Shown here piece by piece: positions 2,156 to 43,751 of a stretch of DNA of 44,372 nucleotides (position 1 is its first letter; the number at the start of each line of letters is the position of its first letter). Source of the DNA: Sedimentisphaerales bacterium (GTDB lineage: Bacteria > Planctomycetota > Phycisphaerae > Sedimentisphaerales > Anaerobacaceae); the NCBI GenBank assembly GCA_028277585.1, contig JANQFY010000178.1, forward strand, positions 1-44,372. The letters run 5' to 3'. The position numbers were made by a program, and so were the translations under genes. The notes under the pieces are model-generated. The model worked only from the letters and a program-made list of their open reading frames with translations. It had not been told where the DNA came from and ran no database searches.

Positions 2156-2192
2156 CTCCTAAATGCATGATGTCCTGTCTGAACCATCCAAG

Positions 2193-12847: not shown

Positions 12848-12894
12848 GCCGATCTTAAGGCTACAGCTGATAACCTTGACCGGAGCAGTGGACG

Positions 12895-14370: not shown

Positions 14371-14384
14371 TCCGCAGGCCGGGC

Positions 14385-16067: not shown

Positions 16068-16093
16068 CGGGCCGGCATTCTGAACGGAGCAGA

Positions 16094-17551
16094 ATGACAA
16101 AGCACAGAAAGCCACCCAAAGGAATGAAGAAGCGGGTCAGGCCTGCTCATTCGAGCCCTCCTCCCGCGACGAGGCACAGGGGGCATCGGCGGTGGGCCGT
16201 CGGGATCATTCTGGCTGTCACCGTGGTTGGAGTGAGCATCATATGGCTGACCGGGGAGGACGCCGAGCCAACCGCGCCCTCATCGCCCGCGGGTGTTCCG
16301 ACTGAACAGCGCCATGTCGTCACCGTTCTGAGTGCGTACGCCGGCCAATCGCCCGAGAATGTGCCGGCCGTCCAAGAGGAGGAATTGGCGCTGGCGGAAG
16401 CCCTGATCCAGGATTTCCCTCAGAGCGATGCGCCGCTGGCGCTGCTGGCGCGCGTCCATCAGTATCGCGGCGACATCACCAAGTCCGAAGCCCTGTGGAA
16501 ACAGGCCGCCGCTCTGAACCCGAAACGCAGCGACTTGTACGAGAGCATCGGCCAGGCCGCTCAGCGAAAGGACGACCCCAACGAGGCGATCGCCTGGTGG
16601 CGCAAGGGTCTGGAGGCGAATCCTCGGGCGCCGGGGCTTCGCTGGCAGATCGCCAAGACCCTTGTTGCCCAAGGACAACTGGATGAAGCGCTGGACCTGC
16701 TCGAAATCGAATGCACGCTTACGCCTACATCCGCGCGGAACTATTATCTGCTGGGTCAGGTCCACCAGAAGAAACGAGCTTACGAGAAGGCCAAGGCCGC
16801 TTACGAGAAGACCATCGAGCTTCAGCCGGACTACTACAATGCCCACTACGGCCTGGGGGTGATCTACACGCGTCTGAAGGACATCGAGAAGGCAAAGGAA
16901 GCCATGGCGCGTTTCCGAGAATTCAAGGCTCAGGCCGATAGCTCGGAAGACCAGCGCATCATAATCGACGAGATCCCGCACGCCCGCCATCGAGCGGCGA
17001 CGTTCTATGTGAGAGCTTACAGCCTGTTCGACCCCAAACGTGAGCCGGCGATCGGCCAGAGGCTGCTCGAAAGAGCCCTGGAATTGGACCCGAACGACGC
17101 CCACACGTGGGAGAAGATGGCGGGTCACTACTTCGTGGGGAATCAGCATCAGAAGGCCCTGGAGCTGTTCCGCAGAGTCACCGAACTGGACCCGAGCAAC
17201 CCACTGCCCCACATCAACATCGGAAAGCTGTACGCCCTGATGAACCAGCCCGGGCGGGCCGGGAGCAGCCTGCGGCAGACCGTCGCACGCTTCCCCGACT
17301 CACACCTGGCGCTGGCCGAACTGGCGCGGTTCTATCTCCGCGTTCAGACCAATCTGCCCGAAGCCCGAACCTTGATGCAGAAAGCCACCGCTCTGAATCC
17401 CACTGCCGACTACTACTTTCTCCTGACCTGGGCGTGCGACATCAACGGAGATCTTGACGGCGCCCTGGACGCCATCCAGAAAGCGATTGCGCTGGACCCG
17501 AGGAACGGAACGTATAGGAGCGCCTATGAACGCATTCAAGCCAAGCGCTAG
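16094..17551 (+). CDS. Membrane-anchored TPR-repeat protein (paralog of 12895-14370)
   Basis: Basic N-terminus followed by a TM helix (…RRWAVGIILAVTVVGVSIIWL). TPR units. Same overall layout as the other TPR partners. Confidence 0.8.
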   Translation: MTKHRKPPKGMKKRVRPAHSSPPPATRHRGHRRWAVGIILAVTVVGVSIIWLTGEDAEPTAPSSPAGVPTEQRHVVTVLSAYAGQSPENVPAVQEEELALAEALIQDFPQSDAPLALLARVHQYRGDITKSEALWKQAAALNPKRSDLYESIGQAAQRKDDPNEAIAWWRKGLEANPRAPGLRWQIAKTLVAQGQLDEALDLLEIECTLTPTSARNYYLLGQVHQKKRAYEKAKAAYEKTIELQPDYYNAHYGLGVIYTRLKDIEKAKEAMARFREFKAQADSSEDQRIIIDEIPHARHRAATFYVRAYSLFDPKREPAIGQRLLERALELDPNDAHTWEKMAGHYFVGNQHQKALELFRRVTELDPSNPLPHINIGKLYALMNQPGRAGSSLRQTVARFPDSHLALAELARFYLRVQTNLPEARTLMQKATALNPTADYYFLLTWACDINGDLDGALDAIQKAIALDPRNGTYRSAYERIQAKR

Positions 17552-19202
17552 AACGATACGATATCTGGCCGCTTTGATTCTCTGCTCGTGCCTGACCGCC
17601 GGCGCCGCGGCGCCGTTTCGTTTTGTCGACGTCACCGCTCAAACGAAGATCGCCTTCAAGCATGATATCGGATTTTCGGGGACGTATCATATCGCTGAGA
17701 CCGTCTGTGCGGGATTGGCCTCGTTCGACTACGACAATGACGGCGATATCGACATCTACTTTCTCAACAGCGCGTCCCCCAAAGGATCACCGTTGCGAAA
17801 CGCCCTCTACCGCAATGACGGCGATTGGCGCTTCACTGATGTGACGAGCGCCGCGGGTGTGGGGGATACAGGATTCGGCCTGGGCGTCGCGGTCGCTGAC
17901 TACGACAACGACGGCGATCAGGACCTCTATCTCAACAATCATGGGCCCAACGTGCTCTACCGCAACAATGGCGATGGGACTTTCACCGATGTCACGAGCG
18001 CCGCCGGGGTGGGCAATGGCGACCAGGTGGGCGCCGGCGCGAACTTCCTCGATATCGAAGGCGACGGCGACGTGGACCTCTACGTATCCAACTACGTCAA
18101 GTGCCCCGACGTAGAGTCGTTTCAGAGCACTCGCGCCGGCCACCCGGCGTACTTGGGCCCCGCGGCTGAGATCTACGAGAACACACGCGACACCCTGTAC
18201 CGCAACAATGGCGACGGGACTTTCACCGATGTCACTGGCCCATCGGGCATCGGCGTACACAAGGGAGCCGGGATGGGAACCATCTGCGGCGACATCGACA
18301 ACGACCACGACACCGACATCCTCGTCGCCAACGACATGACGGGCAACTTCCTCTTCCTCAACGATGGAAAGGGCCGGTTCGAAGAGGCGGGCCTGATCGC
18401 CGCGATTGCCTACGATCAGCACGGAGAGGAACAGGGCAGCATGGGTGTCGAACTGGGCGACTACGACAACGACGGCAAACTGGATCTCTACGTCACCGCC
18501 TACCAGGACCAATGGGGCCCTCTCTACCGCAACCTCGGCGACGGCTTCTTCGAGGACGTCACCATGGAAACAGGCGCCGGGGCCGGGACGGTCGCGAGCG
18601 TCACCTGGGGCAGCGGCCTGGTCGATTTTGACCGAGACGGGCTGCGCGATCTGTTCATCGCGTGCGGTCACCTTCAGCCCAACGTCGAATCGTACGACGA
18701 CCGCACGACGTACAATCAGTTCAACAAGCTTTATCGCAACAATGGGAAGGGCAAACTCGTCGACGTTTCGTCGCAGAGCGGGCCGGGGCTGCAGGTCAAA
18801 CGGTGTAGTCGCGGCACCGCATTCGAGGACTTCGACAATGACGGCGACGTAGATATCGCCATCCTCAATTCGGGTCAAGAACCAACAATCCTCAGGAACG
18901 ATTCACCCAACCAGGGTCATTGGCTGCAGATTCGCCTGCGCGGGACCAAGACCAACCGCGACGGCGTAGGGGCCCGCGTCAAGGTCGTCGCCGGAGATCT
19001 GACGCTGATCGACGAAGTCCACAGCGGGCGCGGCTACCAGAGCCACCACGGAACCCGGCTCTATTTCGGCTTGGGTGGACGCGAGCAGATCGATCGGGTT
19101 GAAGTGCGTTGGATTGGCGGTGGAACGGACGTATTCAAGGACGTCAAGATCGACAGCCTTGTGACACTCGTTGAAGGTCAATCGCAGCCAAGCACTCAGT
19201 GA
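17526..19202 (+). CDS. CRTAC1-family protein (FG-GAP/VCBS + UnbV/ASPIC), secreted
   Basis: Start chosen at MNAFKPSARTIRYLAALILCSCLTAGAAA (signal peptide), which overlaps the last 26 nt of the upstream TPR gene. DxDxDG repeats. ASPIC tail nearly identical to those at 14385 and 31641. Confidence 0.85.
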   Translation: MNAFKPSARTIRYLAALILCSCLTAGAAAPFRFVDVTAQTKIAFKHDIGFSGTYHIAETVCAGLASFDYDNDGDIDIYFLNSASPKGSPLRNALYRNDGDWRFTDVTSAAGVGDTGFGLGVAVADYDNDGDQDLYLNNHGPNVLYRNNGDGTFTDVTSAAGVGNGDQVGAGANFLDIEGDGDVDLYVSNYVKCPDVESFQSTRAGHPAYLGPAAEIYENTRDTLYRNNGDGTFTDVTGPSGIGVHKGAGMGTICGDIDNDHDTDILVANDMTGNFLFLNDGKGRFEEAGLIAAIAYDQHGEEQGSMGVELGDYDNDGKLDLYVTAYQDQWGPLYRNLGDGFFEDVTMETGAGAGTVASVTWGSGLVDFDRDGLRDLFIACGHLQPNVESYDDRTTYNQFNKLYRNNGKGKLVDVSSQSGPGLQVKRCSRGTAFEDFDNDGDVDIAILNSGQEPTILRNDSPNQGHWLQIRLRGTKTNRDGVGARVKVVAGDLTLIDEVHSGRGYQSHHGTRLYFGLGGREQIDRVEVRWIGGGTDVFKDVKIDSLVTLVEGQSQPSTQ

Positions 19203-20344
19203 GGCGCCGAACAGCCGATTGCAGCAACGGATTCAATACTCCCGTCCCGGATGGTCGCGAGCTGAACGGCTCGGGTATTGGCGCCGACGGCATTCCAACG
19301 AATCTGCCCGGCAACGCCTTGGAAGGGAGTCCCATCCCGAACCGCATCCCGGATGCGCGTCCGGTCCGATCCCGCCTTGCGAATCGCACTGGTCAGCAGT
19401 GTCAGGGCGTCGTACGTGTGAGCGGCGGCATAGTCCGGCTGACGGTTGAAGCGTTTGTTGAACTCCTCGGCAAACGCATGGAACCTCGGAGACATGACCA
19501 GAGGATGGGGGAACACAACTCCCTCAGCCGCAGCGCCGGCTTGTTTGAGAAAGGTTCGCCTGCCCATCTGGGGTCCGCCGAAGACCGCGCGGGCGTATCC
19601 TCGGCCGCGCAATTCTCGGAGCACCGCGGCGCCGCCTCGGGGATCAGCAATCAGAACCACCGCCTGCGGATCGGCTTGCAGAATTCCATCGACAATGGGT
19701 GGAACGCCCGACGCTTCCGTATTGCACTGGAGATGAAAAGCCGGGACGATCCGACACGCCTTGAACGCCTTCCGCAATTCCACGGCAAATACCTGGGAGT
19801 CATGGTCCACCGCCGAGACCACCATCAGGGATTGGCGCTCAGAGCGTAACGCTATCGCTTTGGCCAAAACCATCGCCTGCACATCGTCCAGGGGAACGCA
19901 CGAGAACATCCAGGGGACGCCCGCCATGTTAACCGATTTGTCGCTGGCGACGGGACTGATCAGAGTCAGTCGAGCCTTGGCGACCACCTGCTCGGCCAGA
20001 TGGGTTGAGGCGCCGTCGATCCCCCCAACGATCGCCCGGACCTTCTCGACATACGCCATCCGCGCCACGTCCGCGACGCCCGAGCCCCAGGGACTCTCCG
20101 ACCAACTCGTGACCAGGCGAAAAGGAGCACCCTCGCAGCCCCCTGCGCGATTGGCTTGTTCAAGGGCCATCGAGGCGGCGCACCAGAGGTCCCCTCCGTC
20201 GGAATGGGTGGACGAGGCCGGCCCGAAGTAGCCAATGAGGACCTCCCCGACCTTGGAATCAGAAGCATCGAGCGCGGCGAGGCGTCCGACTGCCAACGCA
20301 ACGGCGAGCAGCGCGACACCAGCGGCATGGCGGAAACGGCGCAT
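19196..20344 (-). CDS. Type-1 periplasmic binding protein (Peripla_BP_6, LivK-like ABC substrate-binding protein), with no cognate permease in the window
   Basis: Signal peptide MRRFRHAAGVALLAVALAVG. PBP1 fold motifs (…LIGYFGP…, AIVGGIDGASTH…). The start at 20344 replaces the longer six-frame ORF. The 3' end overlaps the convergent gene ending at 19202 by 7 nt. Confidence 0.75.
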   Translation of the reverse strand: MRRFRHAAGVALLAVALAVGRLAALDASDSKVGEVLIGYFGPASSTHSDGGDLWCAASMALEQANRAGGCEGAPFRLVTSWSESPWGSGVADVARMAYVEKVRAIVGGIDGASTHLAEQVVAKARLTLISPVASDKSVNMAGVPWMFSCVPLDDVQAMVLAKAIALRSERQSLMVVSAVDHDSQVFAVELRKAFKACRIVPAFHLQCNTEASGVPPIVDGILQADPQAVVLIADPRGGAAVLRELRGRGYARAVFGGPQMGRRTFLKQAGAAAEGVVFPHPLVMSPRFHAFAEEFNKRFNRQPDYAAAHTYDALTLLTSAIRKAGSDRTRIRDAVRDGTPFQGVAGQIRWNAVGANTRAVQLATIRDGSIESVAAIGCSAPH

Positions 20345-20351
20345 GGGTAGC

Positions 20352-21839
20352 TCAACTGCGTCCGGCGTCCGAGTGTTTCTCCTCAGTTGCCGAGACATCG
20401 ACTCGGTCGCGGGCCGGCACATAGTCGCGCGGAATTCCCAGATCCTCGCGCGAGCGGTAGGTCCACTCTCCGTCGCGACGCTCGACCAGGAAGACATCGC
20501 CCACGGTGTCGAGCGCAGCGCTGAGGGTAATCTCGCCAGTCACGCCCTCCCACGACTGGGCGCGATGCGCCAGGACGTCGCGGATCTTCGCCCGGTTCAG
20601 GCCGGCGACCTGGACCGCCCAGAGCAACATGTTCATTCCATCGTAGGCATGGGCGGCGTACGTCTCAGCTTCTTCGCCGAAACGTTTCTCGAAGCGCTCC
20701 TGGAAAGCGACGTAGTGCGAATCGTCACGCGTCGGGTCCCAGGGGGAGGTGCAGATCACACCCTCGGCGTTCGACCCGGCTAACTCGAGGAACTCGTCCG
20801 ACAGACAACGGTCGCACGCGAAATACGGATGCTCCATGTCCATCTCGCGCATCTGGTTCAGGATCAGGGCGCCTTCCGAGGCGTTTCCCCAGTGTATGAT
20901 GGCCTGAACGTTCGCCTCTTTGAGCCGTTCGAGTTGCAGAGAGAAATCCTCAATGCCGAGTTTGTAGGCCATTTCCAGGATGATGGGCCGGCCGAGACGA
21001 CGACTCCCATCGCGGATCTCGCGGACTCCGAAGCGGCCGTACCGATTGCTCGCCCGCATAATGCCGACCCGTTCGAGCCCCAGCTTGCGATACAGGTAGT
21101 CGACCAGCAAATACCCCTGCTGGCGATCGTCGCTGATACAGCGGAAGACCCATGGAATGTTAGTCTCGATGAAGGTCGGATCGGTGTCGCCCGAGTTCAT
21201 CATGGGGACTTCGGCCTTCAGCGCTACGCGGATGGCGATATGGCTGTTGGCCCCATCGATGGTCCCCAGGATAGCCCAGACCTTGTCTTTGTACGCCATC
21301 TTGACGATTTCATTGCCCGAGGCGCCCCAGAGCCCGTTGTCGTTGCTGACAATCAGTTCGAAGGGGATGTTCCGCTTGTGATAGCCGCCTTGTGCGTTGG
21401 CCTCTTCGATGGCGAGGCGCGAGCCCTGCAACATCTTGATGCCGAGCGGCTCTTCATGGCTCTTGCCCCCGGTCGCGACGGAGACCGTCGACATGATGGG
21501 CCCGATGAAGCCGATCTTAACCGTGTTGACATCCTCCGGCTCGGGGATCGCCCGCCCCGGCCCGGTGTACTCCATCTGCGTCAGGAAGTGCTCCTTGTAC
21601 GGCTCGACATGACGAAACGGCTTGACGTCATGCGTAGTCTCGGCGTACTTGGCGTCTTCCTTCAGCGCCAGGTCGGGGACCTCGTAGGCGCTGACGGAAT
21701 TGATCTTCTCGACGACCTCGCTGGTGTGCGCGTCGACTTCCACCGGGCCCGATGTGTCGCGACGGGCCTGTTCCGGCCCACTGCACGAAGCCAGAGACAC
21801 CGAGATAACCAGACTGATCAGAACGATCCAACGCTTCAT
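20352..21839 (-). CDS. Type-1 periplasmic binding protein lipoprotein (LivK-like), second tandem copy
   Basis: Lipoprotein signal MKRWIVLISLVISVSLASCSG. Motifs VKIGFIGPIMS…, AILGTIDGANSHIA. Only 7 nt separate it from the next substrate-binding-protein gene. Confidence 0.8.
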   Translation of the reverse strand: MKRWIVLISLVISVSLASCSGPEQARRDTSGPVEVDAHTSEVVEKINSVSAYEVPDLALKEDAKYAETTHDVKPFRHVEPYKEHFLTQMEYTGPGRAIPEPEDVNTVKIGFIGPIMSTVSVATGGKSHEEPLGIKMLQGSRLAIEEANAQGGYHKRNIPFELIVSNDNGLWGASGNEIVKMAYKDKVWAILGTIDGANSHIAIRVALKAEVPMMNSGDTDPTFIETNIPWVFRCISDDRQQGYLLVDYLYRKLGLERVGIMRASNRYGRFGVREIRDGSRRLGRPIILEMAYKLGIEDFSLQLERLKEANVQAIIHWGNASEGALILNQMREMDMEHPYFACDRCLSDEFLELAGSNAEGVICTSPWDPTRDDSHYVAFQERFEKRFGEEAETYAAHAYDGMNMLLWAVQVAGLNRAKIRDVLAHRAQSWEGVTGEITLSAALDTVGDVFLVERRDGEWTYRSREDLGIPRDYVPARDRVDVSATEEKHSDAGRS

Positions 21840-21901
21840 AGCAAACCTCCTCGCCCAGGGAGCATCGTCAACATGCTCTGGCGAAATCATGTCATGCGCT
21901 G

Positions 21902-23080
21902 TCACTTAGACGTCCCCGTTTGCACTACTTTCTGCGCCGCCGGCGCGTGCAAGGGGCGCTCCTTCAGCCCCGGATAGTATCCGGCGCCCTTGCCCCGGGC
22001 CAGTCCCTTGGATGTCCCTACCCAGACGTCGTCGCCATCGATCTCCACCCACAGGGCGTAGTTATGCGGAATCCCGCGCGGGCTGCGGACCGTCTCCAAC
22101 ACCTCTTTGTTGCGAGTGACCACAGCGACACCCTCGTGCGTGTTGGGGTCCATTGTATAGGTAATCCAGGTGTCCGTCGAGAAATCCGTTACGACGCCGA
22201 CGCCTTTGTCGGTGGCGTACCACCCCTCGTCGGCGCTGCGGCCCTTGACGGCGTTGCCAAAATCGCTGGGCAAACCGGTCTCGTGGGCGTAGTAGCCCCG
22301 CCAGTAGCGCCCGTCGTAGCGGCACATGCCGAAATAGCTAGAGACCCAAAGCACGTCGTCCACGTGGCTGACGCCGGTGGTGATCACGTGGACGATGCCG
22401 TCGTCGCGGTACAGATCGATCTCCATCTCGCCGTCCGGATCAAGGTAGTCCTTCCAATTCTCCGTCTTGATGTCGAACTCCAGGATGCCGCTGCCCCAGA
22501 CGCTGAGAAAGACCTTGCCGTCGCTCTGGCAGACGCCGTAGTTCCAGATCTCTTCCATCGGGGCGTTCTTCTCGGTGTAGATCGTCCATTCGCCTGTGAC
22601 GGTGTTGAAACGACTGGCCCCAGCGGTGGTCGCCACCCAGACGTTGTCATTCTCGACCGCGACGCCGTAGACGACGTCGTTGACCAGGCCGCTGTTGAGC
22701 TGGTGCCAGTGGTCGACCCGCCCGCCGCTGAAGCGGGCCAGGCCGCCGCCGAAGAGGCCAACCCAGAGTTCGCCCGTCTTCGGGTTCATATCGAGCGCCG
22801 AGACCACCCGCCAGGGAAGCCCTTCCGCTTCGGTCCAGCTCTTGACCTTGCCCGTGCGCTTGTCGATGCAGGCCAGCCCGTTCTCTGTACCGACCCAGAC
22901 CTTCGTCTCGTCGGCCTCGACGGCGAAGACATGGTCGTTGGGAAGACCGTCCTTGACCGTGAAGTGCTGCCAATCCGTGTAGACATACGGCAAGCGGGCG
23001 GCGCCTGCCGCCGACGCGAAGACCATCGACAGGGCCAATACGATCAGCCCCTTAGAAATCCACTGATGAATCATACACAC
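21902..23080 (-). CDS. Secreted beta-propeller repeat protein (two-component-regulator-propeller / Reg_prop-like repeats)
   Basis: Signal peptide (…GLIVLALSMVFASAAGAA). Repeated ~45-aa units with the pattern …W(V/I)GT.nGLa/…VWVATtaGasrf…, as seen in Reg_prop/Y_Y_Y-type propellers. Confidence 0.65.
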   Translation of the reverse strand: MCMIHQWISKGLIVLALSMVFASAAGAARLPYVYTDWQHFTVKDGLPNDHVFAVEADETKVWVGTENGLACIDKRTGKVKSWTEAEGLPWRVVSALDMNPKTGELWVGLFGGGLARFSGGRVDHWHQLNSGLVNDVVYGVAVENDNVWVATTAGASRFNTVTGEWTIYTEKNAPMEEIWNYGVCQSDGKVFLSVWGSGILEFDIKTENWKDYLDPDGEMEIDLYRDDGIVHVITTGVSHVDDVLWVSSYFGMCRYDGRYWRGYYAHETGLPSDFGNAVKGRSADEGWYATDKGVGVVTDFSTDTWITYTMDPNTHEGVAVVTRNKEVLETVRSPRGIPHNYALWVEIDGDDVWVGTSKGLARGKGAGYYPGLKERPLHAPAAQKVVQTGTSK

Positions 23081-23100
23081 CTCGTTCTCCTGGAAACCCG

Positions 23101-25959
23101 CTACAACGTTTTGATGTACTCGATCAGGTCGTTGAGCTGGTCTTTGGTCATATCGTTGGTGACCCCGTGTTGATCGTCCGGGTTGTAAACCGTCCAGATC
23201 TCCTCGAGCGTCTCGGCGATGCCGTTATGCAGATACGGCGACGAATCGTAAATGTTGTTCAAATGCGGCGTATCGAATTCCGATTCGCGATCCCACTTCA
23301 GTTTCGTCCCAATGTCGTGGCGCTGGCGATCCGTATAGAGCGGCGGTGCGTGACATGTCACACAGCGATTGCCCTTGGGGATCAGGCGACCGTCATTGGT
23401 CATCGTCCGCTCGAACATCGCTTTGCCGCGACGCTGGGCGTCGGTCAGTTCGGCGCCGAGGGGTCGATAGCGATTCGGCGGTCGTGGAATCGTGCAGATG
23501 TAGTTGTCGAGTGCCGAGAGTTGCTCGTCGGTAAATGGCTGAATCCGCGTGAAAAAGACCGCCAGGCGCGGGCCGCACTGGCGTTGCAGACTCGGGTTGG
23601 TCCCCTCCCACTTGAACGGGGCGGTGTCAAGGATGCCCCGCAGCGTACGGTTGTCGACCGGGCTGATTCCAATGCCGTCCGGCTCGATGTCGTAGGTCAG
23701 GCCGTCGACGTGCCCATCAGGATGACACGAGTGACAGGAGAACTGCCGATGGAACGTGATGTTGGCGCTGTGGAAGACGCGCTCGCCGTACCGGATCTTC
23801 GTGATCTCTTTCGGACCGCCCAGGTCAATGCGACCGGCCGCTTCCATCCGCTCGAGATCGATCGCCGTCAGCGAATCGTCCAGGGCGTTGGCGACGAAGG
23901 CGCTCTTGCCGTCCGGCGTCACGATGATCCCGCGCGGGCTGTATTCAACGGGGATGTGTTTGACCACGAACTCCGTCGGCTTGCCCAAGTGGTTCGGAAA
24001 GACGTGCTCACGATCGTGGTCCGACGCCGCCTCGAGCATCGCGATCATCTTTTCCAGATCGATCACGGCTATGCGGTTGGATCCCGAACTGCTCGCCAGC
24101 GCCCACCGGCCATTGGGCGTAATGACCACATCGGCCGGGTCGGGAAACGACATGCCCGGCTCATCGAGCAGGACCTGATCGACGCGGCCATCTTTCCAGA
24201 TAATGCCCAGCCCATTCGTGATCGTCCAGCCCTGCAACAACCGCGTCATCGGCACAAGGTTCTTCGTACGGTTCAGAGTCGTCAGGGCGAACTTCCCGCT
24301 GGGGTGCCAATCCACGCCCTGCATGAGATTGGCGGCCGGCACCACCCGGCGGTCGTCCACGATGTTGCGCTTCGCATTGATGATGGTGACTTCCGACATA
24401 GACGGCGTGCGGAAAGGAACGAAGCGCGACAGGTTGTTCGTGACGTAGATCTCCGAGCCGTCCGGCGCCAGGGACAACGACCAGGGATTGCGGCTGGCCG
24501 CCAGTCGCTTGATCTCTTTCTGCGTTGCCAGTTCGATGATGGAGATACTGTCCGAAGAGGTGTTGAGTACGTACAGATACGTGCCCGAGGGATCGACCAG
24601 AACCCCGTGCGGCTCATCGCCCACGGGAATCGTCCCGATCTCCTTGCGCGAGATAACGTCCACGACCGAGACCGTATCGTCCAGACGATTGCTGACATAC
24701 GCCCTTTGCCCATCGGGGCTGAACGCCACGTCGGTCGGATGGCGGCCCACCGCGATCTCCGCGATCTTGCGCCGCGACTGAGCATCGACAACGATCACCG
24801 TGTGCGACGCCTCGCAGGCCACATAGAGTTCCTTGCCCCCCGGGAGAATCGCCAGATTCAGGGGTGTCTTGTAGTGCGGCGCTTCGGCGACCTGTTCGAT
24901 CTTGGTCGGATGAGCGATCTTCGCAAGCGCCTTCTCATAATCGAATGGCTTGTCGTGCGCGTTCTCGTGACAACGCAGGCATGTCTGTTCGTTCACCTCT
25001 TTGAGCCCGGCCGTGTGCGCAGCGCGCGGATCGGTCATGCGTGCCTCCTCGGCATACGCGCTGCCCGCGCCGTGACAAGCCTCGCAGCCGACTCCTTCGT
25101 AGACCGAGTACAGATCCCGTTGCCCCCCGGCCGGGTCGTGATGCGCCGTGGAATGGCATTTCAAGCAAGCCGCACTCCTCTGTGGGGGCTCCTTGAGTCC
25201 CTTCTCCTTGGCGATCTCGTACGCCTTCTCGGTCGTCAAGACGGCAAACGCACGGCTGTGAGCGCTCATGCGCCACTTGCTGAACTGGTAACCCATCGAT
25301 GGGCCCTTGTGGCAGGTCCCACATTTGAAGACCCCGATATGGGCCGGTGCGTTCCCTTGCGAATCACCAGCCGGCAGTGCGACCGGGTCGCTGTATTTCC
25401 ATTCCTCCGGCGTCGGGTGCGCTATCCGCCGGAGCCCCTTGAGGACGTCCAGGGTGGGCAAGCTATGGACCGCCACGTGGGAACCTTTGACCTGGTGACA
25501 GACCATGCAGTCCCGCGTGGTGGGCATGTTGAGCCCGGCCGCCATCGCCTTCCCGCGATCCCGCATGACCGATTCGGTCATGTACTCGCTACCCGGACCG
25601 TGACAGTGCTCGCACTGGACCCCGTCCTCGACAAAAAATGTGTCGTCCTTCTCCCAATCCTCGGCGTGCGCTCCGGTTGCATGACAGCCCAGGCACATCA
25701 CGCTCTCCTGGGGCTCCTGGGGAATACCGCTCAGTTGCGCGATCGCCTTGGCTCCGGGCTGGGCGAGGACAGCGTAAGCGCGAGCGTGCTTGGATTGCTG
25801 CCAGATGCTGCACTGATGGCCCATGCCCTCCCCGTCATGACAGGCGGCGCAGGCTTTGACGCCGACATAAACCGGTTGCCTCTGAGCCGTGCCATAGGCC
25901 AAGACGGCTGAGGGGAGGATCAGAACAATCGATAGGACACAAAGAAGATAGCGAGACAT
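23101..25959 (-). CDS. 952-aa deca-haem c-type cytochrome: duplicated tetrahaem (c554-like) module + YVTN-type beta-propeller + C-terminal di-haem cytochrome c peroxidase/MauG-like domain
   Basis: Signal peptide. CxxCH motifs: CAACH, CLGCH, CEHCH, CMVCH, CGTCH, CLKCH, CEACH, CLRCH (N-terminal 360 aa), then CHSCH and CVTCH in the C-terminal 300 aa. The CCP-family motif FDTPHLNNIY (cf. F-x-x-PSLRN) is present. The middle region has YVTN-like 40-residue repeats (…AYVSNRLDDTVSVVDV…, …LYVLNTSSDSISIIEL…). Confidence 0.85.
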   Translation of the reverse strand: MSRYLLCVLSIVLILPSAVLAYGTAQRQPVYVGVKACAACHDGEGMGHQCSIWQQSKHARAYAVLAQPGAKAIAQLSGIPQEPQESVMCLGCHATGAHAEDWEKDDTFFVEDGVQCEHCHGPGSEYMTESVMRDRGKAMAAGLNMPTTRDCMVCHQVKGSHVAVHSLPTLDVLKGLRRIAHPTPEEWKYSDPVALPAGDSQGNAPAHIGVFKCGTCHKGPSMGYQFSKWRMSAHSRAFAVLTTEKAYEIAKEKGLKEPPQRSAACLKCHSTAHHDPAGGQRDLYSVYEGVGCEACHGAGSAYAEEARMTDPRAAHTAGLKEVNEQTCLRCHENAHDKPFDYEKALAKIAHPTKIEQVAEAPHYKTPLNLAILPGGKELYVACEASHTVIVVDAQSRRKIAEIAVGRHPTDVAFSPDGQRAYVSNRLDDTVSVVDVISRKEIGTIPVGDEPHGVLVDPSGTYLYVLNTSSDSISIIELATQKEIKRLAASRNPWSLSLAPDGSEIYVTNNLSRFVPFRTPSMSEVTIINAKRNIVDDRRVVPAANLMQGVDWHPSGKFALTTLNRTKNLVPMTRLLQGWTITNGLGIIWKDGRVDQVLLDEPGMSFPDPADVVITPNGRWALASSSGSNRIAVIDLEKMIAMLEAASDHDREHVFPNHLGKPTEFVVKHIPVEYSPRGIIVTPDGKSAFVANALDDSLTAIDLERMEAAGRIDLGGPKEITKIRYGERVFHSANITFHRQFSCHSCHPDGHVDGLTYDIEPDGIGISPVDNRTLRGILDTAPFKWEGTNPSLQRQCGPRLAVFFTRIQPFTDEQLSALDNYICTIPRPPNRYRPLGAELTDAQRRGKAMFERTMTNDGRLIPKGNRCVTCHAPPLYTDRQRHDIGTKLKWDRESEFDTPHLNNIYDSSPYLHNGIAETLEEIWTVYNPDDQHGVTNDMTKDQLNDLIEYIKTL

Positions 25960-25963
25960 CCTC

Positions 25964-27601
25964 TCATGACTCCTTTGACTTGGATGGCTGAACGACTTTC
26001 AGCACCTGATTGGATGGCACATCCGTCAACGCCGTGGTCGCTCCATCCGGCCAGCGGATTTCAACGCGATCGACCTGAGCGGACTTGCCCAGACCGAAAT
26101 GACAGCGGGGGTCGGCCTGTGACAGATAGCCTCGAACCGGAATCGCGTCCTGAACCTGGACGAGCGAACCGGTCTTGACAGTCACCCGCGCCCCGGTGGC
26201 GTGGACCTTGCCTCCGGGCAGGCGGGCATCCACCATCAGCCAGCGATTCTTGTTGCCGCCGTCGTTGCGCAACAATCGGGGGATGGCGTTGAGATTGACG
26301 ATCAGCAGATCGACGTCACCGTCATTGTCATAGTCGCCGTAAGTCGCGCCGCGCCCGACGTATTTCTCCCGGAAGTAGGGACCGGAGTCGATCGCCACGT
26401 CGACGAACTTGCCCGTCCCATCGTTGCGCATCAGCACATCCTCTTCGGTGTACTCGTGATGGGCGTTTCCGTTGCCCACGAAGACATCGAGATAGCCGTC
26501 GGCGTCGTAGTCGAAGAGAATGCCGCCCCAGCCCGTGTACTGGCCGCACACCACCGCCAGGTTCGTCTGAGCCGTGCGGTCTTCGAAGTAGTCCTCTCGG
26601 TTCATCAAGAGACAACCGTACCCCATATCGGGAACGTAGATGTCGATCCATCCATCGCGATCCACGTCGCCCACCGCCGGCCCCATGGACGAAACGCCCT
26701 GGCCCCCTTCCCCGAAGGCGAGCCCCATCTCCAACCCCTCATTGGCGAACGTACCCTTGCCCTCGTTTCGGAAGTAGTAGTTCTCCATGCCGTCGTTGGG
26801 GATGTAGATGTCCAGAAGCCCATCGTTGTTCAGGTCCGTCACGGTGGCGCTCATGGCGCGTCCATTGGGCTGGAAGACACCCGCTTCCTTCGTGACATCG
26901 GTGAAGGTGCCGTCACCGTTGTTGCGGTAAAGGGCGTCGGGTTGCCCGCTGTAACTGAGCGGACCCGGATAGCCGGCCGCGGCGTAGAATGAGCGGAACT
27001 TGCCGCTGTCGTATTCCAGATAGTTGGCGACATAGACATCCAGGTCGCCATCTCCATCGTAGTCGAACCACGGCGCCGAAAGACTCCAGCGGGTATCGGC
27101 CAGGCCGGAAGCCTTGGAGACATCGGTGAAAGTGCCGTCGCCGTTGTTGCGATACAGTACGTTGGCGCCGTAATTGAGCACGTAGAGATCGAGATCGCCG
27201 TCCGCATCGTAGTCAGCCGCCGAGCAGCCGAAGCCAAAACCCTTGTCTCCCACTCGCGCCTTCTTTGTGACATCGACAAAGGTCCCATCTCCCTTATTGC
27301 GGTACAGGGTATTGGCGAGCTTGCCGCGGAACTGACGGCCCCGGTTGTCGCTCACATCGCGGAGCCAGCAACCGTTCGGCAGGTAGATGTCCAGCCACCC
27401 GTCGTTGTCGTAGTCGAAGAACATCGCGCCGGAGCCCGTCCCCTCGACGATGTTGCTCAGATCGAGATCGCCGTAGCTATGCTTGACCTGGATGCCGGCC
27501 TGCTGTGTCACATCAACAAACGTCGGCAACTCCTGCGCCGCCGCGATGCTCAGCAGGCACAAGACCAGAATCGAAACTCGAACGTATTGGGATACACTCA
27601 C
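25964..27601 (-). CDS. CRTAC1-family protein (FG-GAP/VCBS + UnbV/ASPIC), fifth paralog, on the opposite strand from the others
   Basis: Signal peptide VSILVLCLLSIAAAQE. DxDxDG loops (DYDNDGWLDIY, DYDADGDLDLYV, DYDGDGDLDVYV, DVDRDGWIDIYV, DYDNDGDVDLLIV). ASPIC tail (…RWLMVDARLPGG…ATGARVTVKTG…). GTG start at 27601. Confidence 0.85.
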   Translation of the reverse strand: MSVSQYVRVSILVLCLLSIAAAQELPTFVDVTQQAGIQVKHSYGDLDLSNIVEGTGSGAMFFDYDNDGWLDIYLPNGCWLRDVSDNRGRQFRGKLANTLYRNKGDGTFVDVTKKARVGDKGFGFGCSAADYDADGDLDLYVLNYGANVLYRNNGDGTFTDVSKASGLADTRWSLSAPWFDYDGDGDLDVYVANYLEYDSGKFRSFYAAAGYPGPLSYSGQPDALYRNNGDGTFTDVTKEAGVFQPNGRAMSATVTDLNNDGLLDIYIPNDGMENYYFRNEGKGTFANEGLEMGLAFGEGGQGVSSMGPAVGDVDRDGWIDIYVPDMGYGCLLMNREDYFEDRTAQTNLAVVCGQYTGWGGILFDYDADGYLDVFVGNGNAHHEYTEEDVLMRNDGTGKFVDVAIDSGPYFREKYVGRGATYGDYDNDGDVDLLIVNLNAIPRLLRNDGGNKNRWLMVDARLPGGKVHATGARVTVKTGSLVQVQDAIPVRGYLSQADPRCHFGLGKSAQVDRVEIRWPDGATTALTDVPSNQVLKVVQPSKSKES

Positions 27602-27606
27602 GCCTA

Positions 27607-29595
27607 TTATCCTCCACGATCACCCGGGGCGGCCTCTTCGACGACGGGAAGACCGTCCCAAAGCGCCCCCATGTCAATCCACTCAACGAACGTGCGTTTC
27701 TCATCCTCGGTCAGCGCCGGCGCGCCGGCCGGCGGCATCTTCTTTGGCGCCGGGACCGATTCCATGCCGTCCCAGGGGCGGGACGTATTGCGCCCGTAGA
27801 GTCGCCAGATCAAGGGACTCTTCCGCGCTGCGCCGGAATGGACGTACTTGCCCTGCCCAGGCTCCGCCCCGGAAGCCAGCAGGCTCAGATAGCTGCGATT
27901 GAACGACCCCGATGAACCATCACCCACTTTCAGATCGGCCGTCAAATGGATCGGAGCGTCTGCCTGACCATGGCAGCGAACACACTTGGCCGCGATGATA
28001 GGCATGACATCGCGACGAAAATCGACGGTGCGCCGCTGTTGCGGCGCCAGCGTCAACTTGATGGACGGACGCTTGACGGCATCAACGACGATATTCTCCG
28101 GCGTCAGTTCCGGATCTTCGTGACATCCGATGCATCCCTGGCGGGCATAGTCCTTGGCCCAAACCCATCCGCAACTCCGCAGGGCCATGCCGTCCGCGTC
28201 GAGGATTTGCAGTTCGATCGCGGTGTTGGCCGGGATCTCGACGTTGAACGAGCCATCCTTCTCGACAGGGACATCACCCAGGATGCGCCGCTGCGCCAGC
28301 GACGCGGGATGGGCGCCCGGCCCCTTCACGGGAATGCCTTCCAGGACCCGCACGCGCTGGATCGCCCCGGCGGGCAGCCAGGTCGGTCCCAGATCGGACG
28401 TGTACGCGTTCAGACAATACAGTTTACCCGTTCGCGCCGAGGCTTCATGGTGTTCCGGCACGGCGGTCGCCCGCCCGTCTGGTTCGGGCCGCACACAGAC
28501 CGCCTTGGCCTGGATATCGTGCCACTGAGGATCGTCGAAGACCGGTTCGACCTTTCCATCTTCGGGATCGAGCGTGCAGATTCCGTGGGTACCGGCGCCG
28601 TCACTCGATCGACGCGAGACCAGGATGCGTCCGTCCGGCAAAGGTGAGGGAGAATGAAACAATCCCTCGTCATCGGTAGCAATGGGTCGGTAAGAGTGCA
28701 ACGGACGCCGCAGGGTGACAGAACCCAGGCTGCCCGCACCGTCCCAGCCGACCGCATCAGCCTCGACGAATATGACCATCCCGCGCGGAGTGACGCAAGG
28801 CATGTGCTGGACCCGCTTTCCCTGGCCCGTTGTGAACGGGGCGTAATCGGAGCCATCGATGTTGACGCCGAGCAATCCGATGAAGCCGGCCGGCCCGTGA
28901 TCGAGTCGCGCACGTTGCCAACTGGCGAAGACCAGACGACCATCCGGTAAGATGCAGGGATCCAGGTCGCTGGAGAGGTTAAACGTCAATCGGCGCACCG
29001 CTGTGCCATCGAGCTTGCAGGAATACAAGCTGGTGGCGGGGGAACCGCCGTACTCGTTGGTCGCGGCGTCGGTCGCGACAAACGTAATATGATACTCCGG
29101 CACCGACGGTACTCCGACCGGCTTGATTGTATACAGCGAAGACTGGTAGTCCGGGCTGCGGCAATCCCCCATATTCCGCGTGATCTGACGGGCATTGGAG
29201 TCGCCGACCAGCATCTCATAGATGTTCGACTCATAGATGTTCCACGCATCGGTGGAGGCCCGCTTGCCGGCAAACAGTACACGCTTGCCGTCGAAAGAAA
29301 CCACCGGATCGGCTGCGCTGTGGAATCCATTGCTGAGGACTTTCGTCGATCCGTATGTGGCCAAGAGAACGAGTCTGGCGCCGTCGCCGTAGTCCGCTCG
29401 CAGGGTCGTCTCAGCCCGGGCTTCACGACCCCGGTCTTTCGGCAGTTGGGTCAGAACAATCGGATAGCCCGGAGAAGACGTGTCTTCCTGCCCCAATCCG
29501 CTCTGTACCAGGAGCACAATGAGAAGGAGGGTTTGCAGGAGATGACCCCAATGCAACGCCTGAGAAACACTGCGAGGCTTCGCCGGCGAACTCAT
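27607..29595 (-). CDS. Secreted PD40/TolB-like beta-propeller protein with a C-terminal PSCyt1-type (Planctomycete) c-type cytochrome domain (2 CxxCH)
   Basis: Signal peptide MSSPAKPRSVSQALHWGHLLQTLLLIVLLVQSGLG (start at 29595). PD40-like repeats (…DPVVSFDGKRVLFAGKR…). The C-terminus carries CIGCH and …DVMPIIAAKCVRCHG… …LTEDEKRTFVEWIDMGALWD, matching the PSCyt1 pattern. Confidence 0.8.
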   Translation of the reverse strand: MSSPAKPRSVSQALHWGHLLQTLLLIVLLVQSGLGQEDTSSPGYPIVLTQLPKDRGREARAETTLRADYGDGARLVLLATYGSTKVLSNGFHSAADPVVSFDGKRVLFAGKRASTDAWNIYESNIYEMLVGDSNARQITRNMGDCRSPDYQSSLYTIKPVGVPSVPEYHITFVATDAATNEYGGSPATSLYSCKLDGTAVRRLTFNLSSDLDPCILPDGRLVFASWQRARLDHGPAGFIGLLGVNIDGSDYAPFTTGQGKRVQHMPCVTPRGMVIFVEADAVGWDGAGSLGSVTLRRPLHSYRPIATDDEGLFHSPSPLPDGRILVSRRSSDGAGTHGICTLDPEDGKVEPVFDDPQWHDIQAKAVCVRPEPDGRATAVPEHHEASARTGKLYCLNAYTSDLGPTWLPAGAIQRVRVLEGIPVKGPGAHPASLAQRRILGDVPVEKDGSFNVEIPANTAIELQILDADGMALRSCGWVWAKDYARQGCIGCHEDPELTPENIVVDAVKRPSIKLTLAPQQRRTVDFRRDVMPIIAAKCVRCHGQADAPIHLTADLKVGDGSSGSFNRSYLSLLASGAEPGQGKYVHSGAARKSPLIWRLYGRNTSRPWDGMESVPAPKKMPPAGAPALTEDEKRTFVEWIDMGALWDGLPVVEEAAPGDRGG

Positions 29596-30337
29596 CTCCC
29601 TATGTGATTGGGCGCTCCAGGCGCCGCGAAACGTTGCCGCGTCTTCCATCGCTTTCCGCCAAACGAAAGGATTCGCGCCGCCGTCTCAGAACGGACGGGG
29701 GCTCGAATCAGTTGTGTCGATCGTACAGACCTCGACGAGGGCAGCTTGGTGGAGCGATAATCGTGTCGAGTCAAATGCCCAAGTCAACAGTCACACTCAG
29801 TCGCGCAGAGGCCGTATGAAACAGGGTTGCCAAGCTACGGCAGTCTGCTGCACATCAATGTTCTTGGATCGCGCCTCGGCTGGAACCCGTCCCCTGAGGA
29901 CTTGCCGACACACGTTTGCGGACACTCGCCCATGGCGTGTCCCTTCACGATTCGTCGTGGCTATGCCACGCAATTCTCATTCTAGTAAATACGTCTATTC
30001 GACGCAATAACTTGAAAAAAGACTGCCGCCTGATCCCTTCTTACCGGGCGTCGCCGGCAAGAGGATGAGGGCCTATCCACACGGTTGAGCTGCTGCAATT
30101 CCGGCGACCTGGGAGATTTCCGTGGGAAAAAGCCCAGTATCACCCCTGATAAAGCCGACAATGTACTCGGGACGACGAATGTCCCCGAACCGGGACGGTC
30201 TGGCCTCGAGCCGAGGCCGTCGGGCGTCACCGGTGTACCGCTTGCGTCAGCATGGTCATCTTGATAGGATGAGACCAGCAGGGCCGATAAGCAGCGGGAT
30301 TCGGCGCAGGGCTGGTATTCTCCCGACTGGACTTGTG

Positions 30338-31624
30338 ATGAAAACAAGCCGGCACAGTCAACGACGAAGAACCACCACGAGCCAACGCCTGTTTGAATCA
30401 ATCGCCAGGCATGGAGTAGTTTGGCGTCCAACGATTCTATGGGTCGCCTTCTGCTGCGCGCTGCCGGCCCACGCCCAGACCAAGACGACGTCGGAGACGC
30501 CGACGGCCCCACCCCGCGTGGCGCCGGAGGAAGTCGCCGCCCTGAAGAAAGAGGAACTGGGCGTCGTCCAGAAACTAGCCCGGGACTTTCCTAACAGTCT
30601 TGAACCGATCGTCTTGACCGGCCGCGTCCACTACCGACACGGCCGCGCCGACGAAGCGATGGCGATCTGGAAACGCGTGCTCGAGCGCGATCCCAAGCGT
30701 CCCAGAGTGCATGAGGACATGGGCTGGTTCGCGATGAGCAAAGGGCAATACGAGCAGGCCATCGAACACTGGCGTCAGGTCCTGGAGATTCGTCCCGGGG
30801 CGCCCGGCATCCATAGCGGTATCGCCCGGGCGCTGATGGGCTCGAATCGACATGCCGAAGCCGTTGACGCCCTGAAGAAGGAGATCGAGATTTCGCCCAA
30901 CTCAAGCTTCGACTGGTTCCTTCTGGGCCAGGAGCACCGCCAGCAGAAGCAGCATGAACAGGCCAAAGCCGCCTACGAGAAGGCAATCGCCCTGGATCCC
31001 AACCTGACCAATGCCTATTACGGTCTGTTCACCGTCTGTGGGCGCCTCGGGCAGCGGGATGAAGCCAAGCAACACATGGCGACGTTCAAGAAACTCAAAG
31101 CGGCCGACATGGAACGGCTCAAGGACCGCAATGAGGCGTTCAACGACCTGATCGATATGCGTCGAAACGCCGCGGAGACCCTGATGTTCGCCGGGCAGGC
31201 TTATCTGAGCGCCGGGAGAGTGGACGAAGCCGAAAGATTGATCATTCGAGCAACCCAGTTGGCGCCGAAGAACGCCACCTACCATCTGCACGCGGCCGCG
31301 ATCGCCATGCAGCTCAAGCATCCGGCTAGGGCCGAGAAGGCGTTTAGAGAAGTGATCCGACTCGCCCCGGAAAACGCGCGGGGCTACAGCGGGCTGGCCC
31401 ATCTGTACCTTCAGGCGAACCAGAGACTCCCTCTGGCCAAGCAACTGGCGCAGAAAGCCGTGGCCCTGGAGCCCAGCGCCTTCCACTATTACGTCCTCAG
31501 TTGGGCCTGCGGCCGGAACGGCGACGACGCCGGCGCTGCGACCGCCATCAGCCGGGCCGTCCAGTTGGAGCCGGGCAACCCGAGATACCGGCGTATCGCG
31601 GAAGCTCTGAAGATACGGAATTGA
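30338..31624 (+). CDS. Membrane-anchored TPR-repeat protein (third paralog)
   Basis: Start at MKTSRHSQRRRTTTSQRL…ILWVAFCCALPAHA (basic N-terminus plus a hydrophobic segment). TPR units (…WFLLGQEHRQQKQHEQAKAAYEKAIALDPNLTNAYYGLF…). The six-frame ORF extends to 30122, but no signal/TM fits upstream. Confidence 0.75.
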   Translation: MKTSRHSQRRRTTTSQRLFESIARHGVVWRPTILWVAFCCALPAHAQTKTTSETPTAPPRVAPEEVAALKKEELGVVQKLARDFPNSLEPIVLTGRVHYRHGRADEAMAIWKRVLERDPKRPRVHEDMGWFAMSKGQYEQAIEHWRQVLEIRPGAPGIHSGIARALMGSNRHAEAVDALKKEIEISPNSSFDWFLLGQEHRQQKQHEQAKAAYEKAIALDPNLTNAYYGLFTVCGRLGQRDEAKQHMATFKKLKAADMERLKDRNEAFNDLIDMRRNAAETLMFAGQAYLSAGRVDEAERLIIRATQLAPKNATYHLHAAAIAMQLKHPARAEKAFREVIRLAPENARGYSGLAHLYLQANQRLPLAKQLAQKAVALEPSAFHYYVLSWACGRNGDDAGAATAISRAVQLEPGNPRYRRIAEALKIRN

Positions 31625-31640
31625 TAGGACCTTGAGGACC

Positions 31641-35674: not shown

Positions 35675-35709
35675 ACCTTTTGCACCTACGATGATACAGC
35701 AACAGTGAT

Positions 35710-38720: not shown

Positions 38721-38907
38721 GAGCCACTCCGTCTTCTGTTGCTTTCGATCGCCTATGTGATAACCTCCGCCCGGCGAAAAACTTATGCTAACCTGGGAAC
38801 GTTCTGCGTTCAAGCAACCACTTAGGCTTGCTTCACGGGCCCGGCAAAGCGATAATGGGGCGTTCACCAGAGCCATCATTGATCGCATGGAACGAAAGGA
38901 GAGCTTC

Positions 38908-43584: not shown

Positions 43585-43751
43585 GCCCGAGAGGAGGTCT
43601 GGGCCATCCAGGCCTCCTCTCGACGCGCTCTTCCTGTCGGCACAAGCATTGTAGCATGGTTCTGTTGGAAAGCGCTCTGGAGACGGGTCTTGTCCGGCCG
43701 GGGTGATGACACTATCATGGTCGCAGGTGACATTAGTGTTGTGCGACGAAG

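Follow-up and report, generated by a model that had tools for sequence, protein, structure and literature searches.

The 44,372-nt contig JANQFY010000178.1 of a Sedimentisphaerales bacterium (here the window) carries six adjacent minus-strand genes, g1 to g6 in order of transcription, which form a real and strongly conserved operon for an exported 12-haem enzyme. Its haem proteins are homologous to hydrazine synthase (HZS), a decisive relationship that an earlier sequence-only reading of this DNA had missed, and the cluster is the nearest relative of HZS outside anammox bacteria. That reading had proposed an undescribed system; clusters of this type were in fact published in 2023, as hzsA-like and fused hzsBC-like genes in Phycisphaerae UBA1845 metagenome-assembled genomes (MAGs; FEMS Microbiol Lett, PMC10732223), and in 2025, in a study that defined four clades of co-localised HZS homologues, judged them not to be hydrazine synthases and proposed no function (Hagglund et al., Genome Biol Evol, PMC12758564). 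In clade I of the latter study, an alpha-like gene comes first, an FG-GAP/CRTAC1 gene second and a beta-gamma-like gene third, the last with eight additional haem motifs (two c554 domains) at its N-terminus, and two genes for substrate-binding proteins follow. The window shows the g1 > g2 > g3 order with gaps of 5 and 4 nt, the eight extra haem motifs, both alpha haem motifs, and g5 and g6. With every reported clade I feature matched, the cluster is another member of clade I; what was known already is the cluster type, and the window adds a new member to a published, functionally uncharacterised family. Taken as a whole, we consider it probable that the six genes are a clade I HZS-homologue operon whose product, an exported 12-haem enzyme with four fixed partners, is not a hydrazine synthase and would act on a small molecule in two steps, the first of them a reduction.

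The six open reading frames (ORFs) lie exactly where the sequence-only reading had placed them on the minus strand. They encode an HZS-alpha-like protein (g1, 27607..29595, 662 aa, or 680 aa from an alternative ATG at 29649), a CRTAC1-type FG-GAP/ASPIC calcium-binding propeller (g2, 25964..27601, 545 aa), a 10-haem fusion protein (g3, 23101..25959, 952 aa), a single Reg_prop-type beta-propeller (g4, 21902..23080, 390-392 aa), a type I periplasmic binding protein (g5, 20352..21839, 495 aa counted from the ATG at 21839) and a second protein of that type (g6, 19196..20344, 382 aa). The reported gaps of 5, 4, 20, 62 and 7 nt are exact, given the start codons chosen in that reading, and its divergent non-coding spacer of ~690 bp upstream of g1 measures 688-742 bp up to a divergent TPR gene (likely start 30338). 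Export of all six products was likewise borne out on inspection, each N-terminus (g2, g3 and g4 included) looking like a Sec signal, in which a basic n-region precedes a hydrophobic core and a cleavage site with small residues. The haem count also stood, with 10 CXXCH motifs in g3 and two in g1.

The homology to HZS is clearest in g1, which the sequence-only reading had described as a PD40 propeller fused to a PSCyt1 dihaem cytochrome. Behind its signal peptide, g1 begins with a PD40/TolB-like propeller, continues with an HZS_alpha middle domain that has one CXXCH (alpha-I, C488-H492 in the 662-aa numbering) and ends in a class-I-like cytochrome c domain with the other (alpha-II, C538-H542). 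The sole strong Pfam match is HZS_alpha (PF18582), at 75 bits against a cut-off of 26.6. The PD40 assignment is marginal (22.5 against 20.9), Cytochrome_CBB3 and PccH match weakly over the second CXXCH, and the PSCyt1 assignment fell away, as this family is absent from the Pfam matches at E<=0.01. Among solved structures, g1 matches only the alpha subunit of HZS from 'Ca. Kuenenia stuttgartiensis' (5c2v_A, E=3.4e-53, four stretches spanning the full length), and a profile built from 17 relatives of g1 matches the same chain at E=1.4e-77. A low-confidence AF2 model computed from 17 sequences also finds 5c2v_A as its best Foldseek match (E=2e-24, next 1.5e-5). On the strength of these Pfam, PDB, profile and fold matches, the supposed PD40 and dihaem protein is an HZS-alpha homologue, and the homology extends over its whole length. 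Names already in use at NCBI and JGI are 'HzsA-related protein' and 'hydrazine synthase alpha subunit-like protein'.

In g3, the sequence-only reading had recognised a 10-haem cytochrome fused to a YVTN propeller and a CCP/MauG-like domain. Pfam supports the first two parts, with Cytochrome_C554 (PF13435) matching twice (99 bits over two stretches) and a YNCE/Lactonase (YVTN-type) propeller; CCP_MauG remains below threshold (18.8 against 25.6 bits), and membership of that superfamily follows instead from the homology of the C-terminal domain to HZS-gamma. In comparison with solved structures, two c554-like tetrahaem modules occupy aa ~22-350 (nt 24910-25896), a seven-bladed YVTN propeller resembling HZS-beta occupies aa ~360-705 (nt 23845-24882), and aa ~718-952 (nt 23104-23808) form a dihaem domain of HZS-gamma type. 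The match to cytochrome c554 (1bvb, E=2e-5) covers residues 209-309, that to HZS-beta (5c2v_B, E=2e-39) residues 365-700 and that to HZS-gamma (5c2v_C, E=2.2e-21) residues 718-952. Because of these PDB matches, g3 is best described as an octahaem wire fused to HZS-beta-gamma. There are also weak matches to MbnH, MauG and RoxA-like models.

Conservation was read from alignments of 72 g1 and 53 g3 orthologues taken from related loci, and residues were assigned by aligning the proteins to the crystal chains with HMMER (offsets in numbering of +27 in alpha and +39 in gamma), using the HZS residue definitions of PMC12758564 and of a bioRxiv spectroscopy paper. Both haem motifs of g1 are kept in 72/72 orthologues and all ten of g3 in 53/53, including the extra N-terminal motifs at residues 37, 89, 116, 151, 213, 265, 292 and 327. 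Each c554-like module has four CXXCH motifs, three conserved additional histidines and one near-invariant methionine; with these extra ligands all eight haems of the wire can be six-coordinate, which would fit a pure electron wire. In the gamma-like domain, the counterpart of gamma-Cys165 is Cys795 (nt 23575-23577; 'DRVCG' in one and 'QRQCG' in the other), present in 53/53 and predicted to be a third haem-binding cysteine, and the position of gamma-His144 is held by Trp784 (nt 23608-23610; 'PFRHEG' and 'PFKWEG'), again in 53/53. His931 is invariant and aligns with a histidine of Kuenenia HZS-gamma ('MHG'), and Met937 is near-invariant too, both as judged from the alignment; either could be the distal ligand of the electron-transfer haem, a place taken by Met in CCP and by Tyr in MauG. 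The beta-propeller loop at residues 565-583 (TKNLVPMTRLLQGWTITNG) is nearly invariant across the 53 orthologues, and the two candidate positions of the Kuenenia loop glutamate correspond to R573 (52/53) and L575. To judge from these alignments, constraint on the putative catalytic-type gamma haem and on the tunnel loop is very strong.

Could the enzyme nevertheless be a true hydrazine synthase, its host being a cryptic anammox organism of the kind proposed in 2023 for Phycisphaerae MAGs? Clear homologues of all three subunits are present, beta and gamma are fused as in Scalindua, and the unusual third haem-binding cysteine (gamma-Cys165) is kept. Against this, scores to the NCBIfam equivalog models (NF052339-NF052342) fall 3-8 times below their cut-offs (rounded, 237 vs 800, 202 vs 1250, 153 vs 560 and 82 vs 625), at 236.7 bits for hydrazine_alpha in g1, and at 202.1 for the hydrazine_BC fusion, 152.8 for beta and 81.7 for gamma in g3. 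Furthermore, residues that define HZS are missing. Kuenenia alpha-Cys303 (chain residue 276) sits within a 'gnc' insertion that g1 is without, and alpha-Tyr591 has no counterpart, since the alignment of g1 to 5c2v_A terminates at the alpha-I CXXCH and none of the 72 orthologues has a tyrosine within eight residues after the alpha-I histidine. Instead, the alpha-I motif runs into an acidic cluster, GCIGCHEDxE (E493, D494 and E496), that is invariant in 72/72. Alpha-His772 ('LLHNKF' in Kuenenia) aligns with Ala625 (662-aa numbering; Ala643 in the 680-aa form), and the loop glutamate (Arg/Leu) and gamma-His144 (Trp) are replaced as described above. The alpha-first gene order is the reverse of that in anammox bacteria, and the window, at ~61% G+C, encodes glycoside hydrolases, trehalose enzymes and TPR/ASPIC genes, with no hdh or hao in its 44 kb. 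The residue pattern and the equivalog scores together rule out a true hydrazine synthase to the extent that we regard this explanation as extremely improbable, the same negative verdict as reached by Hagglund et al. (PMC12758564). A separate idea concerning alpha-II, that its haem is His/Met-ligated through Met620 (662-aa numbering, KKMPP, five residues before Ala625), was downgraded as a family trait, as Met620 occurs in 17/17 of the closest relatives, a close sub-clade, and in just 33/72 family-wide.

The cluster is widespread. Alpha-like relatives number more than 2259 in a 90%-clustered collection, and a 50%-clustered library holds 4242 representatives at E<=1e-3 and 420 at E<=1e-30. Scanning one genome per species gave at least 563 carrier species, mainly of Planctomycetota (Phycisphaerae/Sedimentisphaerales, Pirellulales, Thermoguttaceae) and Acidobacteriota (Bryobacteraceae). 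The best species-level match to the alpha-like protein of the window is only 67% identical (Phycisphaerales bin164), and metagenome contigs reach 71-89%, which would place the window in an uncultured planctomycete, probably one related to Phycisphaerae. The exact g3 protein has no database record. Published carriers of clade I clusters include Aquisphaera giovannonii, Thermogutta terrifontis, Novipirellula artificiosorum, Syntrophobacter fumaroxidans and Paludibaculum fermentans (PMC12758564), and a contig with a g4 homologue that NCBI labels 'Deltaproteobacteria bacterium' has the same six genes.

Synteny was assessed in 47 loci whose sequence extends 8.3 kb or more beyond the alpha-like gene on its downstream side. 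Here g2 is present in 47, g3 in 46 (the exception being an assembly gap), g4 in 45, g5 in 45 and g6 in 41. Order and orientation are identical in 40 of the 47 loci and across at least two phyla, with variable outer flanks. Chance adjacency of unrelated genes, which the sequence-only reading had linked to genes never co-localised in relatives, is thereby refuted and is the least credible of all explanations, and the proposal of one co-directional, conserved, exported multihaem redox module holds. Conservation is higher in the partners g2, g4 and g5 than in the haem subunits, with median identities of 70% for g4, 69% for g5, 68% for g2, 66% for g3, 51% for the alpha-like protein and 47% for g6. 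Positions conserved at 95% or more make up 28-36% of g2, g4 and g5 (155/545, 139/390 and 179/495, respectively), compared with 100/662 in g1. Two loci deserve separate mention. In L085 (3311-9886 of a 2.6-Mb contig), the alpha-like gene is broken into parts of 81, 468 and 111 aa and g3 reaches no more than 704 aa, which could be a decaying copy, a fewer-haem variant or the result of assembly errors. In L084, a CHASE8-HAMP-PAS histidine kinase and two response regulators (394-3192) lie directly upstream of the six-gene module. Small ORFs upstream of the alpha-like gene in these same two loci were rejected as a further component; they are not conserved, and the one in L085 is the N-terminus of the split alpha-like gene.

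Four partners accompany the haem proteins. The FG-GAP/ASPIC assignment of g2 is well supported in Pfam (FG-GAP_3 168 bits, UnbV_ASPIC 83 bits) and against human CRTAC1 (9etn, E=1.6e-22), and its DxDxDG motifs are among the positions conserved at 95% or more. It is 60-84% identical to its in-cluster counterparts and only 38-42% identical to the other ASPIC paralogues of the window, from which it stands apart as a distinct orthologue. A literature search on the function of bacterial ASPIC/CRTAC1 proteins yielded nothing useful. The Reg_prop-like nature of g4 is weak in Pfam (23 bits) and solid against the BT4663 sensor (4a2l, E=3e-25) and by fold, as an AF2 model with a predicted local distance difference test score (pLDDT) of 82 and a pTM of 0.82 has hybrid two-component sensor propellers as its best Foldseek matches (TMq 0.60-0.64). 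The g4 family exceeds 2520 proteins, similar in size to the alpha-like family (>2259). Its most invariant feature is an acidic stretch at residues 212-229 (nt 22387-22440; DPDGEMEIDLYRDDG..H), also its only internal segment with a pLDDT below 50, which may be a docking or a metal/calcium-binding loop.

The binding-protein call for g5 and g6 was confirmed by Peripla_BP_6 (136 and 132 bits) and by matches to 4gnr (E=5.6e-25 and 2e-19, respectively). g5 has a lipoprotein-type signal with the lipobox LASC, a feature recovered in 17/49 orthologues by a crude motif scan, and an N-terminal extension of ~100 aa (21540-21839) before the binding-protein fold that contains many residues conserved at 95% or more (Y52...P101). 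g6 is 27% identical to g5 and is the least conserved member of the cluster.

The two binding proteins and the sensor-like propeller raise an alternative in which the cluster is a periplasmic sensing or uptake device, with binding proteins and propeller capturing a solute and the cytochromes being incidental or used for redox signalling. Consistent with this, g4 shares homology with sensor domains found in hybrid two-component systems, the family of g5 and g6 is that of ABC-transporter binding proteins, and one locus (L084) has a histidine kinase and two response regulators upstream. However, g4 is stand-alone, without a kinase or other output domain, and no transmitter, permease or ATPase gene was found among the window ORFs scanned with Pfam or recurs in the flanks of 80 related loci, as the sequence-only reading had noted for permease and ATPase in the window. 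The 12 invariant haem sites and the conserved catalytic-type cysteine argue for enzymology, and we consider a sensing or uptake device very unlikely.

We propose instead that g1 and g3 would assemble like the alpha/beta/gamma heterotrimer of HZS. The fused eight-haem wire would carry electrons between the catalytic haem and a partner outside, the route from the wire running over the second gamma-like haem and invariant Trp784 to the first gamma-like haem. The latter, with a predicted third thioether bond from invariant Cys795, is the likely active site, where a small N-O or O-O compound (nitric oxide (NO), hydroxylamine or peroxide) would be reduced. A small substrate or intermediate may then pass the conserved beta loop (P570-M-T-R573...Q576-G-W-T) to the g1 haem, and a second step could take place at the canonically His-ligated alpha-like haem, beside the acidic cluster E493, D494 and E496. 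In this scheme, the task of g5 and g6 would be to hold a second small ligand or to bring it in, no transporter being involved, and g2 and g4 would be obligate structural or ligand-binding subunits.

The extracytoplasmic oxidative or protein/glycan-modifying machine envisaged in the sequence-only reading is one possibility, and a MauG-like role of the gamma-like domain is a minority rival close to its protein-modifying part. Under this rival, the domain would act as a MauG/MbnH or dihaem peroxidase in which peroxide or O2 generates a high-valent haem oxidant, and a partner protein is modified by hole-hopping through Trp784; candidate targets would be the ASPIC propellers in the cluster and its neighbourhood, or g4. 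HZS-gamma belongs to the CCP/MauG fold (bioRxiv spectroscopy paper), tryptophan replaces gamma-His144 in 53/53 orthologues as in CCP and MauG, and MbnH, MauG and RoxA-like models match weakly. The persistent linkage of several ASPIC paralogues to the cluster also fits, as does the acidic loop of g4, which is invariant yet unstructured in the model. Conversely, CCP_MauG scores below the Pfam threshold (18.8 against 25.6), and the rival leaves the alpha-like haem subunit, the tunnel loop and the two binding proteins unexplained. The eight-haem wire points to a continuous flow of electrons more than to the occasional maturation of a protein. To our knowledge, the third haem cysteine belongs to HZS-gamma and is absent from MauG and CCP, which counts further against this explanation, and we judge it unlikely.

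Several observations also weigh against the preferred two-step scheme. The predicted complex, the tunnel and the direction in which electrons would flow all derive from homology. The residues on which alpha-site chemistry depends in HZS are missing, so a two-step channelled reaction is not guaranteed, and a tryptophan at the gamma-His144 position suits peroxidase or MauG chemistry as well as N-oxide chemistry. The structural model of g1 is poor (pLDDT 55), and only its best Foldseek match was used. The solved proteins nearest to g5 and g6 bind amino acids but are distant (E=1e-19 to 1e-25). A Pfam scan of the 44-kb window revealed no other nitrogen-cycle genes (no hdh, no hao), and a literature search found no biochemical, expression or genetic results for any member of the family. 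Chemistry of the NO/N-oxide/hydroxylamine type, favoured by the retained HZS-type haem cross-link, is a tentative possibility; peroxide or MauG-like chemistry, favoured by Trp784, is slightly less likely; and a chemistry of some other kind has a little under an even chance of being the correct answer.

Regulation of the operon may reside in the spacer upstream of g1. Comparing DNA from five distinct loci whose alpha-like proteins are 66-74% identical to that of the window revealed long, near-identical blocks upstream of the alpha-like gene. In the window these form a promoter-like block and 5' leader on the minus strand (29596..30007, core leader 29824-29975), with the promoter-like sequence TTGCGT-N17-TAGAAT at 29979-30007 (shared form TTGCGT-N17-TA(G/C)AAT) and, downstream of it, a leader of ~320-375 nt. 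Copies occur in L086 (2948-3382), L004 (9426-9860), L001 (9443-9877) and L091 (~4025-4250), and a divergent TPR gene bounds the spacer in four of the cases (the window, L001, L086 and L090/L091). The leader contains two hairpins with conserved stems and variable loops, and RNAalifold supports one helix in which three pairs show compensatory changes and hardly any pair is broken. The upstream spacer has no match in Rfam, a consensus promoter scanner did not flag the block at 29979-30007, and consensus promoter and terminator scans gave no more matches than shuffled sequence. The leader was not found in loci at 65% protein identity or below. With n=5, the pattern is no more than suggestive of a cis-regulatory RNA specific to this lineage or of several sites for protein binding.

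Directly downstream of g6, a convergent plus-strand operon (9335..19202) encodes, according to Pfam, a large TPR-FG-GAP-ASPIC fusion (9335-12847), a TPR protein (12895-14370), an ASPIC protein (14367-16067), a second TPR protein (16094-17551) and a second ASPIC protein (17454-19202). The stop-codon regions of g6 and of the last of these genes overlap by 7 nt (19196-19202), leaving no room for an intergenic terminator. A TPR/ASPIC array follows g6 in six of the seven loci that can be viewed that far (L001, L084, L086, L087, L088 and L089; not L085), at 13743-21107 in L084, 13824-20498 in L086, 13955-20541 in L087, 13750-21179 in L088 and 13929-21221 in L089. It typically consists of a fusion of ~1160-1210 aa with TPR, FG-GAP and ASPIC domains, then one or two TPR/ASPIC sets, with a CN_hydrolase gene at the end in some loci. 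An initial impression that these neighbours are not conserved came from a view reaching only ~2.4 kb past g6 and was overturned by g4-anchored look-ups. Upstream of the cluster, a divergent plus-strand pair (30338..33326) consists by Pfam of a TPR gene (~30338-31624) and an ASPIC gene (31632-33326); the pair also occurs in L001, L086 and L091 and is rare across the wider family. The window holds five ASPIC-domain genes besides g2, whose products may be partners or substrates of the haem enzyme.

Other neighbours recur in relatives. A cytoplasmic gene with RidA/L-PSP and FkbO_N (chorismatase-like) domains lies directly upstream of the alpha-like gene on the same strand in ~16 loci (for example L042 5279-6586), and is not found in the window. 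A carbon-nitrogen hydrolase gene follows g6 convergently in at least ten loci (for example L065 20614-21870, L084 13743-14744 and L088 13750-14769), its product being 70-78% identical across loci and without a signal peptide; the CN_hydrolase of the window (40614-41453) is of a different subfamily and lies 11 kb away. Both were rejected as parts of the exported module, as neither has a signal peptide and neither form is present in the window. Elsewhere in the window, 33494-37512 holds a fused trehalose-6-phosphate synthase/phosphatase gene (GT20 + Trehalose_PPase, 726 aa) with a GH15/trehalase-like gene directly after it, so that genes for trehalose synthesis and degradation are adjacent. A 1144-aa protein with HEAT and FG-GAP repeats is encoded at 2193-5627 (minus strand), and several candidate ORFs of 200-490 aa at 38785-40257 (plus strand) and 42451-44371 (minus strand) have no Pfam match at E<=1e-4.

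HZS is among the most unusual enzymes of the nitrogen cycle, and its origin was long attributed to de novo birth. Learning the role of its nearest relative would show which chemistry it evolved from, and might bring to light a reaction of NO, hydroxylamine or peroxide in the periplasm of soil and sediment bacteria that has been overlooked. As a more speculative idea, to which we give a low probability, the six proteins would form a periplasmic enzyme of small-nitrogen-compound chemistry that keeps the ancestral activity behind HZS, occurs in hundreds of soil and sediment species and is controlled, in the lineage of the window, by a structured 5' leader RNA not described before. Under this idea, NO or hydroxylamine might be reduced at the haem with three Cys links, and the second haem might couple this to the formation of ammonium or of an N-N or N-C bond with an amine delivered by the binding proteins. 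Since cultured organisms carry the cluster, its function is directly testable. A practical consequence for annotation is that 'hzs-like' genes should not be taken as evidence of anammox.

Among known systems, Kuenenia HzsABC (PDB 5C2V) has alpha, beta and gamma modules that are homologous to those of the window over their full lengths, and the two have in common four c-type haem sites in equivalent positions, the third cysteine for the catalytic gamma haem and the insertion loop of the beta-propeller. The Kuenenia enzyme has a Tyr-ligated, Zn-associated alpha-I haem, with His587 turned to a Zn site shared with Cys303, and a bis-His alpha-II haem, whereas the residues for both are missing in the window. 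The window also differs in having Arg/Leu for the loop glutamate (Mg-binding in HZS), Trp for gamma-His144, eight extra haems, the alpha-first order and four extra conserved partner genes. Compared with dihaem CCP and MauG/MbnH (PF03150), the C-terminal domain of g3 has the same superfamily fold by way of HZS-gamma and a conserved tryptophan at the position of inter-haem electron or hole transfer; unlike them, it is sub-threshold in Pfam, has an additional haem-linking cysteine, is fused to a propeller and an octahaem wire and in every case has an HZS-alpha-like subunit as its companion. Cytochrome c554 of Nitrosomonas europaea (PDB 1BVB/1FT5) resembles the tandem tetrahaem modules of g3, which differ in being fused to an enzyme. 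One haem of c554 is five-coordinate, whereas the g3 modules have enough His and Met for four six-coordinate haems each. The sensor propeller of Bacteroides BT4663 (4A2L) and human CRTAC1 (9ETN) are the counterparts of g4 and g2, respectively, and neither has a known role in a redox enzyme.

The closest comparisons are with the published homologues. The UBA1845 MAGs (PMC10732223) have bit scores to Kuenenia of 89-163, similar to the 79-185 of the window. In those MAGs hzsA-like lies immediately upstream of hzsBC-like, whereas in the window an ASPIC gene lies between them, and the possible anammox raised by the authors is rejected here for the window. For clade I (PMC12758564), a term search of the main text gave no mention of a two-component-type or Reg_prop gene; relative to that main text, the present analysis adds the near-universal g4, the conservation of the partners, the linked TPR/ASPIC operon, the lineage-specific leader, the distinctness of g2, the ligand count of the c554-like modules, the lack of recurrent ABC permease or ATPase genes in the flanks, the gene order shared by 40 of 47 loci and the count of carriers. 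In its diagnostic residues, the window agrees with clade I throughout, both having the gamma-165 cysteine and the gamma-144 tryptophan and both having lost alpha-Tyr591, alpha-Cys303, alpha-His772 and the beta-loop glutamate.

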